From Octopus vulgaris (lineage: Eukaryota), in NCBI GenBank assembly GCA_951406725.2, contig OX597838.1:43772001-43836000 (forward strand): a stretch of DNA of 64,000 nt, in the 5' to 3' direction. Of the stretch, positions 20,609 through 62,804 are shown one piece after another. The notes below the pieces were generated by a model. It was not told where the DNA came from. It saw nothing but the letters and a program-made list of their open reading frames with translations, and ran no database searches. Position 1 is the stretch's first letter. The number at the start of each line of letters is the position of its first letter. A program made the position numbers and the translations under genes.

Positions 20609-23324
20609 TAGGTGTGAATAAAAGCCTCTGCATGGCAAATATGTGGCCCGTAACAAACAAACTGATGTAGACAAGAAGCTTCTTGTCTACATCTTACGAG
20701 AAACGCCAGCGCTTCTTTGAACAAAACAAAAAGTTCAACTCCAACCCCAAAAAGTTCTACCAAGAACTTGGCAAAAATAAAATAGAAGTCACTGCAGCAC
20801 CAACGGCAGAAGAATTGGAAGAATTCTGGAGAGAAATATGGTCGGCGAACGAACAACCAAAAAAAGGAGTATCAAAATAACAAACTCGGCATCTGAACAA
20901 CTTTGGATCCCCATAACAACTGAAGAGGTCACCCAGGCACTGCAAAGACTAAGCAACTGGAAGGCACCTGGGCATGACAAAATCCCCAACTTCTGGTTGA
21001 AATATCTAACAGGAATGCACAAAAAGCTGGCTGAAAACTTTAACAACATACTAGCAGAGCCAGAGACAATGCTTGAATGGCTCACGAAGGGGAAAACTAT
21101 CTTAATTCCCAAATCAAATGAGACAGCAAAACCAGAAAACTACAGACCAATAACCTGTCTCCCTACAATGTACAAGGCATTTACTGCAGTGATATCGCAA
21201 AGGTTGAACAAGCACCTGGACGAAAACAACCTGTTTCCAGAAGAGCAGAAAGGATGTCGCAAAGGCTCATATGGCTGTAAAGATCAACTAATGATTAATA
21301 AAGTCATAACTGAAGACAGCCACAGAAAGAAGAAAGGCCTCAGTATGGCCTGGATTGACTACAAAAAGGCGTTTGATAGCATCCCCCACACATGGATCCT
21401 CGAAACACTAGCCATTAACAAAGTAGCACCAACAATCATAAAATTCATAGAGCACTCTATGAATAAATGGCAAACAGTCCTACACCTCCAAACAAAAGAA
21501 GGACTCATGAAAACTAAAGACATCCCCATTAGAAGAGGAATATTCCAGGGAGACACGCTCTCTCCACACCTTTTCTGCTTGGCACTGTCACCTCTATCTG
21601 ATATACTAAATAGAACTGGATGCGGATATAAATGTTACGGCAAAACGATCAGACACCTTTTATATATGGATGACCTAAAACTATACGCTGCAAATGACAA
21701 ACAGCTGGAAACACTATTAAAGACAGTTCGTGGATTTACCAAAGAAATAGATATGAAATTTGGATTAGAAAAATGCGCCAAAGTAACCATGAAAAGAGGA
21801 AAACTAGTTAAGAGTAGCAACACCACACTATATAAAACCAATGAAATAAAAGAATTAGACCAAAGCCAAACTTACAAATACTTAGGAATCCATGAACTAG
21901 ATAAGACACAACACACACAAATGAAAGAGAAAATAAAAAAAGAATATTATAGACGAGTTAGATCAATACTAAAAACAGAGCTCAATGCTAAAAACAAGAT
22001 AATAGGTATTAACACTTTAGCTGTCCCAGTTATAAGTTACAGCTACAATATCCTTAACTGGACACGAAATGAACTGACCAAAATAGATAGGAAAACAAGA
22101 AAAATAATGACAGGATCTAGGATGCATCACCCAAAATCTGACATAGAAAGACTATATATACAACGTATAGAAGGTGGTAGAGGCCTTATACAGCTGGAAA
22201 ACTACTATAAAATAACCACCATAGGACTGCAAAAATATCTACTTCAGAAGGAAGGAAAACTGATACAAATAGCGGCAAAACACGAGCAAAACAAAAAACT
22301 GTTCTCAGTATTTAAGGAAGCTGACAAATACAAACAAGAAATCATACCACCTAATAAATATGAAGAAGAAGAAGAAGAAGAAGAAGATGAAGAAACAACA
22401 AAAGCTATAAAACAAATGAAATCCAAACTAAAAATAGAACAGCAACGAACCATGATAAAACGATGGCAAGAAAAGCCCCTTCATGGTAAATACTGGACTA
22501 AACTAAACGCAAAAGAAATAGACAAAGAAAAATCTCAGCAATGGTTGAGAAGCCCAGGACTCAAAGCAGAAACAGAGGGATTTTTAATTGCAGCACAAGA
22601 CCAAAGCCTCCCCACCAGAAATTACCAAAAACATGTAATGAAAAGAAATATTACAAGTAACTGCGGAATATGTGGAGATGGACAAGAAACAATAAATCAT
22701 ATTATCTCTAGCTGCCCAGTCCTGGCTAAGAAGGAATATATTCACAGACATGACAGAGTTGGAACCTACATACATTGGAAGCTATGCCAACATTATGGAA
22801 TAACAACAGAAAAAAGATGGTATAGGCACACACCAGAAAAGGTCACAGAAAACGAGAAAGCAACCATACTCTGGGATATGCCGATACACACAGATAGAGA
22901 AATTAAGGCTAACAGACCAGATATAGTTGTCAGAGATCATGAAGAAAAAAATGCTTTCTAATTGATGTATCAATACCGGCAGATGACAACGTGTCTCTAA
23001 AAAAAATGGAGAAACTCTCAAAATACAAAGACCTGGAAATAGAGGTAACTAGAATGTGGAATCTGAAAACAGAAACAATTCCTATCATAGTAGGTGCATT
23101 AGGCATGATAAAAAAATATTCAGACAAATACATAACAAAAACACCAGGACTTACAAACACATATAACATACAGAAAATTGCACTACTAAGCACTGCACAC
23201 ATCCTACGCAGAACACTTTCCATACAATAACCATCAGAGCATCACAACAAATCACAGCACATACCCAAGGCACACAGAGCTGTGCTCGGTAGTGAAGTGA
23301 AAGCACGCTATAAAAATAAAACTA

Positions 23325-28421: not shown

Positions 28422-28947
28422 TATACCACCTGCCTTCGCATTTTGTTTGTTTGTGAATTCTCCCTATATATATATGCATATATATATATATATATATATA
28501 TATGCGCACATAGGCACACATTACTACTTACCTACCTACCTACCTACCTACCTACCTACCTACCTACCTACCTACCTACATACATACATACAAACATACA
28601 TACATACTACATAGTACAAACATACATACATACATACATACATACATACATACATACGTACATACATACAAGTTACTCCACTAAGTAAATTTCATTACAT
28701 GAATTTACAGCTTTTGTAAATATCCGGTGAATGGTTTGCATACATATGTTTTGTTAAACAATCCTGAAGGAACTCACATGAAAATTGGTTTTAGAGACAT
28801 AGACAATTATGTGTAGAAATGCATAACTGCATACACATTTACACATGCAATCTCATATATAAACCATGTATATATATATATATATATATATTACGGAGAT
28901 GTACCTGCATAGCAAGTGATTTGATCTGAGATCGTGTGCTGAATCGA

Positions 28948-29237
28948 AAACAATTGCAGCGTGGAATATGTTTGTAAGCCATTTAAGAAACACACAAAAG
29001 CCGTTCGATTCACTTCAACATTTAAGTTTAATTTGTCAAAATATTTTCGTCACTTTAAGATCGCGACCTGTTCACTGACAAAAATCAGATGCAGCACGGA
29101 TTTTTGTCAGTGAACAGGTCGCGGTCTTAAAGCGACGAAAATATTTTGACAAATTAAACTTAAATGTTGAAGTGAATCGAACGGCTTTTGTGTGTTTCTT
29201 AAATGGCTTACAAACACCTTCCACGCTGCAGTTGTTT
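28948..29237. repeat. Fold-back inverted repeat (~140-bp arms, ~12-nt spacer) of a hammerhead-bearing element between (TA)n tracts
   Basis: 28948-29086 and 29099-29237 are reverse complements with a few substitutions. Confidence 0.95.
29103..29153 (+). ncRNA. Minimal hammerhead with G3-C8 compensatory core (mirror copy 29032-29082, minus)
   Basis: TTTGTCA GTGAACA g GTCGC ggtcttaaa GCGAC GAAA ATAT TT TGACAAA. 7-bp stem I, 5-bp stem II, palindromic stem III loop. Confidence 0.75.
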
Positions 29238-29361
29238 ATATATATATATATATATATAGTTAATCCAAACAAGAAAGCACAAAAAAAAAACACAACAGCG
29301 CGAGGATGTGGAACAAATATAGTATTATTGGACGCTCAGGAAAGAAGGAAAGAAGGAGGGA

Positions 29362-29747: not shown

Positions 29748-29817
<70 letters not shown>

Positions 29818-29819
29818 TT

Positions 29820-30800
29820 ACCCCACTAAAAACCCCAACCATAGACACTGAACTCTGGCTAGAAATTGTGAATAATAAAACCCAAATCCTTCATTCATAC
29901 TATGCCAAACCTATGGCCTCAAAATACTTGATCCACCGGAACTCAGCCATTGCGGACAATGCCAAATTCAATATTTTGATGGCAGACCTCGTCAGAATAA
30001 TGAGAAATGTGTCACGCATGTGCGAGCCTACAGAGTTAAAGAGACACATACAATATTTCATTCACCGCATTCAGTTCTCAGGTTACAGCCATAAAGAAAG
30101 GATCAGAGTATACAAAGGAGCCATGAGGAAATTTGATAATATATTATGTAATGATAGGAATGGGATTTGCCCACTCTATAGGAACAAGTCATGGAACACT
30201 ATAGAAAGGACAAAAAAGAAAATAGGGTAGGCCAACTCTTGGTATGATAGCCATAAATACCAGAGTGTCATGTTCGTTGACACCACCCCTGAAGGTGAAC
30301 TGGCGTACCACTTTAGAAGGACCCTAGACAAACTTAAGCTAAGGATTAAGGTTGTTGAAAAGCCAGACAACCCTATCAAATCTATAATTGGTAGAACCTA
30401 TCCTTTTAGTAGAACTCCCTGTACGGATAAGTACTGTACTGTATGTAGATTTAGCCCACAAACAAACTGTAAAGCCAGAAATGTAGTCTATAGTATAAGA
30501 TGTATAGAGGGACGATGCAGTAACAAGACAACGACATACGTAGGGGAAACGGCAAGAAGCATAGGAGAGAGGGTAAATGGGCATTGGAGACAACTCAAGG
30601 AAGGTAAAAGCTCATCGATTCTGACCAACACGCCGAACAGGAAACGGGGGATCTATCAACAACATAGAAATTAAAATATTGTCCACACATAGATCAGATG
30701 CAGCAATTAGACAAATTACAGAAGCTATACACATAATAGAAAATAAACCTAGCCTGAATAGAAAACTAGAATGGAACACTAGCACACACCACAACATATG
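29820..30800 (+). pseudogene. Penelope-like element fragment: RT thumb + Cys-rich linker + GIY-YIG endonuclease (Neptune-like)
   Basis: YYAKPMAS..HRNSA..K, then PCTDKYCTVC..CKARNVVYSIRC..YVGETARSIGERVNGH. One stop at 30228 and one frameshift near 30625. Confidence 0.85.
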
Positions 30801-31840: not shown

Positions 31841-33131
31841 CGAGGGGCGTTCAATAAGTAATGCCCCTGACCCACTTGCAGTTGTTTGATCTAGCTGTTG
31901 TTTGATGTGCAATTATTTATATATCTATAGAGTAGGTGGCAAATTACAGCTCTGAACTAATTGAGGTTTCTGATTTACAGGTGTTTGAACTGAGTCAAGT
32001 GTGAAATGGAGCCTGTTGAGTGTCGAGCAGTGATCTGGTTTTTGTATTTGAAAGGACGCACACCACGGGAGACATTTGATGAAATGAAAGTAACTTATGG
32101 TAATGATGCCCCATCATATGACATTGTAAAACGCTGGCATCGTGAATTCAAACATGGTCGGAACTCGGTGGAAACAGCTCCCAGATCTGGTCGCCCCCCT
32201 TCTGCAATTGATGAGGCATTTGTCCGTCAAGTTGAGGCTGCCATTTTGGAAGATCGATGCATAACTATTCGCCAAATAGCCCACGAGGTCAAGATTAGTA
32301 CCGGGTCTGTGGAAACTATCATTCATGACCATTTGCATATGCAAAAGGTGTCTGCCAGATGGATTCCCAGGTTGCTCACACCTTTCCAGAAGCAAGAACG
32401 CGTCGAGTGCTCGAGGATGAATTTGGAGATGTGCCAAGAAGATGAGTCAAAATTTTTCAAAAGACTGATTACACAGGATGAAACCTGGGTCCATCACTAT
32501 GATCCAGAGACCAAAGCCCAGTCAATGCAGTGGAAGCACCGTGACTCACCTCCTCCAAAGAAGGCAAGGGTGCAGCCCTCCGCTGGCAAGGTCATGCTCA
32601 CAGTCTTCTGGGACCAGGACGGAGTATTGATAACATATTTCCTGGCAAAGGGTACCACAATTACAGGAGTCTATTATGCTTCACTTTTGAGGAAATTAAG
32701 AGAAACTATCAAAATCAAGAGGCGGGGCAAGATCAGCAAAGACATCCTCCTCTTGCATGACAACGCTCCAGTCCACAACTCGCTTGTCGCTAGATCAGAA
32801 GCACAGGCGTGCGGCTATGAACTTCTCCCCCATCCCCCCTACTCTCCTGACCTTGCACCCTCTGATTTTCACCTCTTCCCAGCCATGAAGTTGTATTTGA
32901 AAGGAAAACGTTTCCCAGATAATGCAGCCTTGATTTATGAAGTCACGTCGTGGTTGGAGGACCAAGCTGGGTCTTCTAAACAAAACGGTCTCCAGAGCAG
33001 TATAAAACGATGGGAGAAATGCGTAACTCTGGGTGTTTCCTATGTAGAGAAAGACTAATAACTGTGCAAAGTTTCGTTGCTCTACTGCTATGGGAAGTGG
33101 GTCAGGGGCATTACTTATTGAACGCCCCTCG
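31841..33131 (+). mobile_element. Full-length mariner DNA transposon
   Basis: Perfect 37-bp TIRs cgaggggcgttcaataagtaatgcccctgacccactt. TA on both sides within (TA)n. 1291 bp. Confidence 0.97.
32006..33058 (+). CDS. Mariner transposase (DD34D), uninterrupted 350 aa
   Basis: N-terminal HTH and RSGRP, WIPRLL, ITQDETWVHHY, LHDNAPVH, HPPYSPDLAPSDFHLF. Counted 34 residues between the second and third Asp. Confidence 0.97.
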   Translation: MEPVECRAVIWFLYLKGRTPRETFDEMKVTYGNDAPSYDIVKRWHREFKHGRNSVETAPRSGRPPSAIDEAFVRQVEAAILEDRCITIRQIAHEVKISTGSVETIIHDHLHMQKVSARWIPRLLTPFQKQERVECSRMNLEMCQEDESKFFKRLITQDETWVHHYDPETKAQSMQWKHRDSPPPKKARVQPSAGKVMLTVFWDQDGVLITYFLAKGTTITGVYYASLLRKLRETIKIKRRGKISKDILLLHDNAPVHNSLVARSEAQACGYELLPHPPYSPDLAPSDFHLFPAMKLYLKGKRFPDNAALIYEVTSWLEDQAGSSKQNGLQSSIKRWEKCVTLGVSYVEKD

Positions 33132-36237: not shown

Positions 36238-36317
36238 ATAATAAATATTAGGGAATAAATCCAAATTTACAGGGAAAAAATCAGATTTAGGATTAAATCC
36301 AATTTTATAGTAAAATA

Positions 36318-36661
36318 TTATATAATATTAATTCGAGACAAAACCACTATTTTGCAAAACAAACAAAGAAAGACTTAATCAATACATAAAAATTTTTAAT
36401 ATAAAGAAATAAACCGCCACTACAATCGTTTCATGTCTTCAATGACATTCGTCAGGTGGATTTTCGATATCCTAATCTGTTTTAATTTAATTATTATTAA
36501 AACAGATTAGGAGATCGAAAATCCACCTGACGAATGTCATTGAAGACATGAAACGATTGTAGTGGCGGTTTATTTCTTTATATTAAAAATTTTTATGTAT
36601 TGATTAAGTCTTTCCTTGTTTGTTTTGCAAAATAGTGGTTTTGTCTCGAATTAATATTATA
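36318..36661. repeat. Fold-back inverted repeat (~170-bp arms) of a hammerhead-bearing element between (TA)n tracts
   Basis: 36318-36486 and 36495-36661 differ at only about two positions by eye. Confidence 0.95.
36523..36565 (+). ncRNA. Canonical minimal hammerhead (mirror copy 36417-36459, minus)
   Basis: CCAC CTGACGA ATGTC attgaa GACAT GAAAC gatt GTA GTGG. Confidence 0.85.
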
Positions 36662-50333: not shown

Positions 50334-51980
50334 CTATGTTTGACTTTTGCTTTACATTCTCACAAGCTGGCTCCAAGTCTAACCCAGAGATCTCAAGAGA
50401 CAACAAGTTAGAAGTTCATGCTGGTGTTATGCCTAGTATGCCATATATTTGGTTTTGTACTTAGTGTTGTACTAATGAATGTCTAAAAAACTATACGAAA
50501 ATTATGTTTGTTTTAAAGCTTGAGATTACATAGAAAGTATTTTGCGTAGGATATGAGCAGTTCCCACGGGCACTATCTTTTGAATTTCTGCCATTTTGGG
50601 GTTTCTTGGTATCTGAGTTAGGTAGCAATTAGCCCCCTTTACTATCATTCCCAGGGCACCTATGACAACTGGTATTGTTTTAGTCTTCAGGTTCCACATT
50701 TTGCTGATTTCTATTTCAAGATCTTTATATTTGCTCAGTTTTTGATAGGTCTTGACAGATACGATTATATCGATTGGGACAGTCATATCAATGAGGAGGC
50801 ATGTTTTCTGATTGAAGTCTTTCAATATGATGTCTGGCCTATTTGCATCAATCTTTCTTCCAGTTTGAATGGTGAAGTTCCAGAGGGGTGAGATGTGATC
50901 ATTTTCAAGCACTAGAGTTGGTTTGTATTCCCACCAGTTTTTATCATGGGGCAAGTCCAGGCTTTTGCAAATTATCCAGTGAATATATAGTGCAGCTCTA
51001 TCATGCCTGTTGAGATACTCTGTAGGCGCAAGAAGACTGCATTTGGAGACAACATGGTCAATGGTTTCATTTTGTTGTTGACATACACGACATGTTGGGC
51101 TACTGCATTTCTTTAATATGTAGGCCTGGTAGTTCCTTGTAGGTAGGCTATGATAAACCCTTCTGTTTCAGATTTTAAGCCAGAGGCCATTAGCCATTGA
51201 TGGGTCAGGGCTTTGTCAACATCTGCATTATTCGCTCTCTTTGGGTATTTGCCATTGAGAGGTTTTCCTTGCCATTTATCAATCAGAATATCTAAGGCCG
51301 CAGTTTTAGCACGGGTTTTCATGCGCTTAGCTTTTTCTGTGTTTGTTTCTTGTATGTCTAATTCCGAAATTTGTTGTATTCGGAATTCACTTAGATATTC
51401 CTTTGCCTGTTTTGTTACTGAGTATGATGCTTTCTTGTTTTCATGTTTTGAGACAAGTTTTAACATCCAGTCCTCAGACTTTTTCAGGTAGGTGTCTAAG
51501 CCAATTGTAGCAATCTTCATTGTTATTGCCAGTTGTAAAAGTCCACGGCCTCCCTCTTTTCTTGGCAGGTAAAGTCGTTCTATATCTGCCTTAGGGTGGT
51601 GCATTCTATGCATTGTCAACAGGTTTCGTATTTTTCTGTTAAGATTACATATTTCAGTAATTGACCAGTTAACGATATTGAAACTGTAAGTCACGACTGG
51701 TATGGCTAAAACATTCATCGCTTCGATCCTGCTTCTCGCATTCAGCTCTGTCTTGAGTATTGCTCTTACTCTGCGATAACATTCTCTCCTGATCTTTTCC
51801 TTCATCATTGAATGCCTTACTCCGTCCCCTTCAATTACCCCTAGGTTTGTAGCTCTCCGCTGGGTCTAACTCTTTTATGACATTCTGCTGGTCAAGGTTA
51901 ACGTTAGATGTTTCTGTCATCTTTCCTTTGACAAAGGTGGCTTTTGCACATTTATCGAGGCCAAATTGCATTCTGATATT
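50334..51980 (-). mobile_element. Second R4/Dong-clade family, 5'-truncated, with 3' end in (TAA)n
   Basis: MQFGLDKCAK, YRRVRAILKTELNA, MHHPKADIERLY..GGRGL, RPDIIL..LIDMTVP..KLSKYKDLEIEI. Flanked by (ATT)n at 50312-50333 and (ATC)n at 51980-52023. Confidence 0.9.
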
Positions 51981-61097: not shown

Positions 61098-61884
61098 CTC
61101 TTAATCAGCTTTCAGCTAGGGTATTGCTAAAGAAGGGAAGGAAAAATTATATTTCCTATTACTGTTATTGGATTTCATGTTTTTCAACACAAAGGGCGTG
61201 ACAGGGGTGTTTATGCATATATATATATCAAATATAAATTAGTAATCGATGTGTCATACTTAATGCAGATATATCAAAGAAAGCCTGAGTAACTGCAGTA
61301 ATCGGCTTGAGATAGTATCTTTGATATTTGACTTTTATTAAAAAACACAAAAAATCTCAAAAATACATCAGTAACAGAGGAAAATCGTCCAGCAGCTGTA
61401 GTAGCAAATTATGCATTCCTGCCAGTTTGGGCCCTGACAGTAGGAAGTATCAACTAGAAACTGCACGCAACAACCAAATTCGTGGTTAATGATATAGTAA
61501 AAGAGAGATACAAGAACCATTGATGATGCGATTAGCTGGTCGGCTGAATAAATATTCTTTATGTGCAACCGAAGTTATGTTATATCTCTACTTATGTATT
61601 GAGTACTTGTAACTATTGCTTGCAATTCTAAACGCATATTTAACGTAGACTATTAATTCCTGTTTCTCGAGGTCTTTTAGGAAACAGAGAACCCAGAACT
61701 GCAATGGAAATTGCGGCCAGCAAATTGCACTACCAAAAATATAAAAATACCATTTAAAAAATCCTGAATATCAAAGTTCTTATACCAAAGACGAAAGATT
61801 TTATGAAATGAACTGGAAACAAGGCACTTTTCTTCAGGAAGCGGAAATGCACTGCCTATATACATATATATATATATATATATA

Positions 61885-62592
61885 TAATAGAAATATTAAA
61901 ATTACTAAGTCTCTCTAAAAGAGATTACGGCAGCGTTACTGGAAATTAATAGTTATCGCCATATTAATATGGCAGTCTTATAAATATAAGACTAAAGATG
62001 TCGCTGATTAGCTCCATGAGGCCATCGCCTTAAGCTAGCTATTTGACACACAAACTGCGTCCATTATAACCGTCGAACAAGGGAGGTCAGCCGCTTCATC
62101 CTGCCAGTCAGACAGCTACAGACGACGTTTCAGGGTTGTTGCCCCTTATCAATGCAGCGTAGACAGACTTGCAGGTGTCGCTACTGATCGTCTCAGTTCG
62201 AAGGCTTTATTTACCTAGTTTGGGTGGAATACATCCACTTGTTTTCAATAATAGAAATATTAAAATTACTAAGTCTCTCTAAAAGAGATTACGGCAGCGT
62301 TACTGGAAATTAATAGTTATCGCCATATTAATATGGCAGTCTTATAAATATAAGACTAAAGCTGTCGCTCATTAGCTCCATGAGTAGCGACACCTGCAAG
62401 TCTGACTACGCTGCATTGATAAGGGGCAACAACCCTGAAACGTCGTCTGTGGCTGTCTGACTGGCAGGATGAAGCGGCTGACCTCCCTTGTTCGAAGGTT
62501 ATAATGGACGCAGTTTGTGTGTCAAATAGCTAGCTTAAGGCGATGGCCTCATGGAGCTAATCAGCGACAGCTTTAGTCTTATATTTATAAGA
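61885..62592 (-). mobile_element. Retrozyme-like element: 364-nt unit in partial tandem (~1.4 copies) plus an inverted 5' copy
   Basis: Direct repeat with period 364 (aaatattaaa at 61891 and 62255). 62383-62592 is the reverse complement of ~61975-62185. Each orientation contains a hammerhead. Confidence 0.85.
62115..62158 (-). ncRNA. Minimal hammerhead with U3-A8 compensatory core (mirror copy 62410-62453, plus)
   Basis: GCTGCA TTGATAA GGGG caacaa CCCT GAAAC gtc GTC TGTAGC. Confidence 0.75.
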
Positions 62593-62634
62593 AAAAACAG
62601 ACACACAAGCACACACACACACACATATATATAT

Positions 62635-62804
62635 ATACGACGGGCTTCTTTCAGTTTACGTCTACCAAATCCACTCACAAGGCTTTGGTCGGCCCGAGGC
62701 TATAGTAGAAGACACTTGCCCAAGGTGCCACGCAGTGGGACTGAACCTGAACCCGGAACTGTGTGGTTGGTAAGCAAGCTACTTACCACACAGCCACTCC
62801 TGCG

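Follow-up and report, generated by a model that had tools for sequence, protein, structure and literature searches.

We identified a new family of non-LTR retrozymes in the genome of Octopus vulgaris, as judged by sequence-level criteria: a dispersed, non-coding unit of 364 nt that carries a predicted hammerhead and occurs in tandem. The family is likely pasted into (TA)n microsatellites by the RT/endonuclease of a Neptune-type PLE.

Anatomy of the locus and its predicted hammerheads

All positions refer to the window, that is the whole 64-kb stretch of DNA analysed, and the unit coordinates q1–364 follow the minus strand from 62248 to 61885. The studied locus comprises one full unit (q1–364, 61885–62248, minus strand, 42% GC), the 3' end of which adjoins a (TA)n microsatellite target (61857–61884), and a partial upstream copy, q229–364 (62249–62384, minus strand), joined to it head to tail at q364|q1. 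The direct repeat (61884–62020 versus 62248–62384) covers 137 nt at a period of 364 with 2 differences, which corresponds to 1.37 units. A second arm, q61/64–273 (62380–62592, plus strand), is inverted; the inverted arms, 61976–62188 and 62380–62592, match over 213 nt with 5 differences. An ORF check revealed no frame of at least 90 aa inside the unit. The original prediction of a non-coding 364-nt unit, repeated about 1.4 times and followed by some 210 nt in inverted orientation, was accurate on each of these points.

The main arm ends in a 'tail' of ~60 nt, q305–364 (61885–61944, minus strand), located between the two fixed 3' ends of the unit, both of which are preceded by CTATTA. By analogy with PLE insertions (PMC11167929, PMC8557442), we infer that the two ends are RT start sites. 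The tail is absent from the second arm, which stops at q273, ~30 nt short of the q304 end usual in the family, and was probably trimmed later. Next to this shortened arm lies a common interspersed repeat (62593–62800) that was also found in the flanks of two other family loci (L149 and L173).

Each arm matches a type I hammerhead descriptor consisting of the TTGATAA core, stem II GGGG-CAACAA-CCCT, GAAA, helix III ACG-T-CGT, C17 and a 6-bp stem I. The U3-A8 matches lie at 62152 (minus strand) and 62416 (plus strand), each with a GUC site. Hammerhead 1 with its extended stem I spans 62099–62174 (minus strand), has its core from U3 to A9 at 62152–62146 and is predicted to cut after C17 at 62121; hammerhead 2 spans 62394–62469 (plus strand) with its core at 62416–62422 and a predicted cut after 62447 (z −3.1). 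The core and the near-palindromic stem III had been read from the letters by eye, as had the U-A versus U-G difference in stem I between the arms; all of this was recovered, the 3' strands of stem I reading TGTAGC (U-A) and TGTGGC (U-G). Also at the motif level, U3-A8 was rightly called a third solution to the 3-8 pair, since the only four other descriptor matches in the window are C3-G8 (36527, plus strand; 36455, minus strand) and G3-C8 (29110, plus strand; 29075, minus strand). The former lie in an inverted two-armed repeat with one C3-G8 motif per arm and TA-rich flanks (36250–36660), which represents a different family. The latter are hammerhead-like motifs within a large inverted repeat (28890–29240), the palindrome of which could itself yield stem I.

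Rfam models detected no hammerhead at the studied locus. The 10.1–11.1 pair of this copy is G-U instead of G-C and its helix III, ACGTCGT, is an imperfect palindrome, both of which count against its predicted ribozyme. Hammerhead 1 carries a private change, at 62163, by which its distal stem I is weakened.

Among subfamilies, all four bases occur at position 7, U3 and A8 are constant, and a base other than U at position 3 was found in only 21 genomic copies, all of which keep A8. Helix III occurs as ACGCGT, ACATGT, ACGT or, as in the studied copy, the imperfect ACGTCGT; its palindromic nature fits the dimer fold described in PMC4209133. In a cross-subfamily alignment of 36 rows (A2), five pairs showed changes of both partners, and none of 500 shuffles attained the score, a result inflated by related rows in this partly hand-picked alignment, three rows of which (L164, L171 and L172) contain flank on the 5' side. 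One stem I pair and the 10.1–11.1 pair each appear as G-C, G-U and A-U, without a mismatch in 35 rows. Covariation among 59 closer copies (A1, truncated rows L041 and L057 omitted) was not above that of shuffles (65 of 500). In the consensus fold of 26 units the hammerhead caps a predicted rod of ~140 nt, which corresponds to q42–181 (62068–62207, minus strand; circular fold z −5.3) at the studied locus, and four units folded as rings gave z values of −5.2 to −9.4 (opposite strand, −4.0 to −8.5). The U3-A8 variant itself is not new: it is a published natural covariation, reported to be active in vitro (PMC3088659), it occurs in the Schistosoma Cercyon PLE (PMC4209133), and ~1,300 matches are reported for S. 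mansoni (PMC3088659, PMC4209133).

Copy number and insertion pattern

A unit search of the 2.8-Gb genome yielded 2,360 first-look candidates, 40 of which were scored. A loose U3-A8 core pattern matched 2,545 times genome-wide versus 59 times for the reversed-pattern control, and the motif is therefore not due to chance; 2,545 is a lower bound, because the pattern misses the helix III variant of the studied copy. Among the matches listed, 93 of 100 belong to the 364-nt family. The exact head-to-tail junction q364|q1 was found 1,542 times (control, 0). The unit period is 360–365 nt throughout, and the longest arrays comprise 3.8–5.5 units with 0–3 differences between units. That is, the family is multi-copy and non-coding with true arrays, and the retrozyme-like tandem organisation as well as the constant period anticipated by the original prediction were borne out. 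Li et al. call loci with at least two consecutive complete hammerheads 'active' (10.64898/2026.07.22.740005); such arrangements are present at L192–L194, whereas the studied locus, with a single hammerhead on each strand, has no tandem pair.

For the insertion pattern we analysed 103 distinct sites with 168 arms. These sites were picked by best score, hammerhead presence or junction, and the distributions of 5' ends and lengths are therefore biased. Of the 168 arms, 141 terminate at either of two fixed 3' positions, which lie 60 nt from each other (85 at q355 or beyond, 56 at q295–313; 27 end elsewhere). Both orientations occur at 53 of the 103 sites, with one end of each class at 36 of these. 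TA-rich flanks adjoin 62 of 83 arms ending at q358–364 and 38 of 56 arms of the q295–313 class. Target-site duplications, expected to exceed 4 bp in retrozymes when present, are masked by (TA)n targets. With the 3' ends in two fixed classes, the permutation point is fixed and only the 5' truncations vary, which contradicts the variable 5' permutation points that had been proposed.

The 5' ends are scattered, apart from a cluster at q164–173 (17 of 168) just inside the rod that likely reflects a stall. The predicted cut site is crossed by 118 of the 168 arms, by 16 of them at least twice, and only 2 of 168 5' ends coincide with it; a linear monomer released by cleavage was therefore rejected as the principal template. 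All segments of a given locus fall into one subfamily, and their median difference is 2% versus 9–10% for typical other loci (73 of 73), but in just 19 of 73 comparisons are they closer to each other than to any other locus. Read from the sequence, the combination of partial tandem, inverted copy and one-sided tail clearly corresponds to a PLE insertion footprint; in vitro, this tail and inverted-copy pattern reflects two internal RT start sites (PMC11167929). Reverse transcription around a circle and partial-tandem insertion by a PLE had originally been offered as alternatives. The PLE-type footprint held, the exclusive choice did not, and a circular template is plausible alongside it.

Related copies were also detected in independent sequence runs labelled as four organisms. 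Contigs X1, X3 and X5, from runs only guessed to be RNA, cover the unit, with a nearly blank flank in X1 and X3; they were rejected as expression evidence because DNA carry-over from thousands of copies would look alike. In the literature, as far as the sources cited here reach, we found no description of the 364-nt family or of retrozyme tails or fusions; supplementary family lists could include the family.

Neptune-type PLEs and a candidate promoter

A GIY-YIG search revealed a young PLE with open frames of 781 aa in 16 of 148 rows. Its 781-aa product comprises RT and GIY-YIG domains and the CX4CxxC linker that marks the Neptune/Nematis clades. Intact copies (L195–L199) possess overlapping ORF1 and 781-aa ORF2, a U3-A8 hammerhead of their own and a 38-nt tail; like the unit, the element has two ends and (TA)n targets. 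Of 30 GIY-YIG loci of the Neptune-type PLE, 18 contain, downstream of the frames, a U3-A8 core whose helix III reads ACRYGT, and 5 of 15 Neptune 3' ends showed the 38-nt tail, all with TA-rich flanks. In the 3' region of two loci of a Neptune-type lineage (L147 and L153), TTGATAA is followed by GCAACCGGT in place of GAAACRYGT, which could be a further core variant or decay. The window itself contains a fragment of a young and abundant PLE family at 29748–30674 (GIY-YIG; 5,770 candidates; frames >1,200 aa elsewhere).

Neptune-type ORF sequence is fused in sense orientation to the 5' side of the unit at 2 of 103 sites, L040 and L093, with different join points (q58 and q252). The arm at L040 ends normally in (TA)n, without a continuation into the endonuclease, and at L186 a Neptune fragment lies at the outer end of an arm. 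Such fusions may be template switches or, equally, target deletions. We considered L040 as an autonomous partner and rejected it: 1 of 30 copies of its family joins the unit, and 10 longer stretches lacked homology. BLAST found no unit-homologous PLE among the sampled loci (four sets of 25–30 plus longer stretches, of thousands of candidates), and no sense homology to the unit in 30 GIY-YIG loci, 25 Poseidon-like loci and 30 loci of a third PLE family. The sampled PLEs and the unit have the ribozyme core alone in common. One opposite-strand unit neighbour was seen among the PLE loci (L150), and a weak match at L200/L201 was discarded as AT-rich and antisense.

The unit may bring its own promoter. 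The element AGTGGATGTA at q10–19 (62230–62239, minus strand) is identical or near-identical to a motif ~57 nt upstream of 7 of 20 U2 snRNA loci, where it is the best match. This post hoc resemblance is suggestive of a candidate promoter element. The site q62–72 (62177–62187, minus strand), a candidate transcription start, is uninterrupted at the studied locus and holds a Tx1-like LINE with a zinc-knuckle ORF1 of 455 aa in other copies (L040, L314, L050 and L121), the unit resuming at q62 in L314; among the 103 sites, 3 show such an element. At two further loci (L294 and L301), a similar Tx1-like element lies directly against the first U2 base. Other long frames of the window lie at 20781–23230, 50526–51865 and 31994–33058; by eye, we take them to encode LINE RTs (726 aa and others) and a mariner-like transposase of 354 aa.

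Relation to known systems and mode of mobilisation

Metazoan non-LTR retrozymes are described as non-coding tandem units of 150–450 bp with one type I hammerhead each and a GC content below 50% (PMC7229834), and mussel units measure 350–390 bp, PLEs being the proposed mobilisers (PMC7229834; 10.64898/2026.07.22.740005). The octopus family resembles these elements in unit size, hammerhead, short palindromic helix III, GC below 50% and a highly paired predicted ring. It differs from them, as described in those sources, in the U3-A8 core, the predominance of dispersed 1–2-unit insertions, the two fixed 3' ends and the inverted arms; moreover, it has no pLTR homologue among the sampled PLE loci. 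Insertions of EN+ PLEs (Neptune/Naiad; PMC8557442, PMC11167929) share with it the partial tandem plus inverted 5'-truncated copy, the tail at one end, the two internal RT starts and the (TA)n or AT-rich targets, whereas the octopus unit lacks an ORF, has a tail of ~60 instead of 30–40 nt and measures 364 nt as a whole. Multicopy head-to-tail insertions are likewise known from Chlamys elements such as MRC1, a non-autonomous PLE with pLTRs. But non-autonomous Chlamys elements as a rule match an autonomous family in their 3' sequence, a homology not found for the octopus unit in sampled PLE loci, and most lack canonical hammerheads, while a hammerhead is predicted here (PMC8557442). The compensatory 3-8 pair is common to the octopus unit and the published U3-A8 hammerheads (PMC3088659, PMC4209133). 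Schistosoma-type PLE motifs, however, are minimal and mostly single, with a long helix II, an extra base at 9/10.1 and a short helix I (PMC4209133); the octopus hammerhead has a helix II of 4 bp, no extra base and a long stem I (6 bp plus extension) with an internal loop, and lies in tandem units.

In animal retrozymes, pasting by PLEs from RNA rings is assumed, and the literature consulted calls the mechanism unresolved. For the octopus family, mobilisation is very probably of the PLE type and there is a reasonably good case that the PLE belongs to the Neptune clade; that the template is a ring rather than an uncleaved multimer we favour only slightly. In our main reading, tandem copies would be transcribed, an snRNA-type promoter near q62 being a possible source. 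Two hammerheads would pair via their palindromic helix III and cut at q128, and the cleaved monomer would be ligated to a ring. The PLE enzyme would then nick both target strands and start two cDNAs, at q364 and at q304; each would continue past the junction and the cut site up to a stall, leaving the partial tandem and inverted arm of the studied locus. The tail length speaks against this reading (60 versus a published 30–40 nt), as does the failure of 8 of 9 predicted Xenopus retrozymes to cleave (10.64898/2026.07.22.740005). More tentatively, and at somewhat under even chances, we propose that the ring is copied by a Neptune-type PLE that primes on both strands of the target, at two fixed sites of the one circular template, that the U3-A8 core common to the two identifies the partner lineage and that the Neptune/unit fusions are template switches.

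A serious, if somewhat less probable, competitor keeps the family and the PLE machinery but replaces the ring by an uncleaved linear multimer, or by template jumping, with a weak or dispensable hammerhead. For the PLE called PAc, RNA that had not been cleaved served as the main substrate in vitro and hammerhead mutants inserted normally (PMC11167929); most octopus arms are shorter than 1.5 units, and read-through RNA would explain arms that cross the cut site equally well. Yet compensatory change across subfamilies keeps the hammerhead fold, the 5' ends of multi-unit arms do not accumulate at q62, the candidate start, and several young arrays are internally identical yet distinct from every locus among the 103 sampled sites (L193, 0 versus 3.4%; L181, 0 versus 2.0%). 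As to the enzyme, a Naiad or Poseidon-type PLE or the Tx1-like LINE is an unlikely substitute. Further abundant PLE families do exist in the genome and Naiads, too, target (TA)n and make tails (PMC8557442), but both the U3-A8 core and the fusions favour Neptune-type elements, and the Tx1-like LINE (3 of 103 sites) lies inside the unit, which resumes after it, and thus treats the unit as an insertion target.

That the unit is the pseudo-LTR of an autonomous PLE and its dispersed copies are 5'-truncated remnants would agree with the PLE-type architecture, with the sense joins at two loci and with pLTR homology in 24 of 57 Xenopus families (Li et al., 10.64898/2026.07.22.740005). We regard it as improbable, since the unit does not regularly flank an RT plus GIY-YIG ORF, the two fusions differ in join point, unit-to-unit junctions are exact at 1,542 places with arrays of at least five units, and all but one of the 30 L040-family Neptune copies continue into their own endonuclease and 3' UTR. 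The original prediction had named copies invariably attached to a PLE ORF, and a single-copy sequence, as grounds for its rejection; the joins at 2 of 103 sites dispose of the former, the junctions and thousands of dispersed copies of the latter. Local duplication, satellite expansion or misassembly is barely conceivable and, for the studied locus, refuted: unequal exchange could have lengthened arrays later and the flanks are microsatellites, but thousands of copies with common ends are dispersed over many contigs and the family recurs in independent runs.

The 364-nt family extends retrozymes to an octopus genome. It offers, within a single genome, insertion ends and targets together with a candidate intact enzyme and fusion products, and the PLE assay published for in vitro use could thus put the retrozyme–PLE step to a direct test. 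If a Neptune-type PLE does copy the ring, an intact enzyme and its substrate would reside in the same genome, and the insertions described here would constitute direct genomic evidence for the proposed retrozyme–PLE rolling-circle step.
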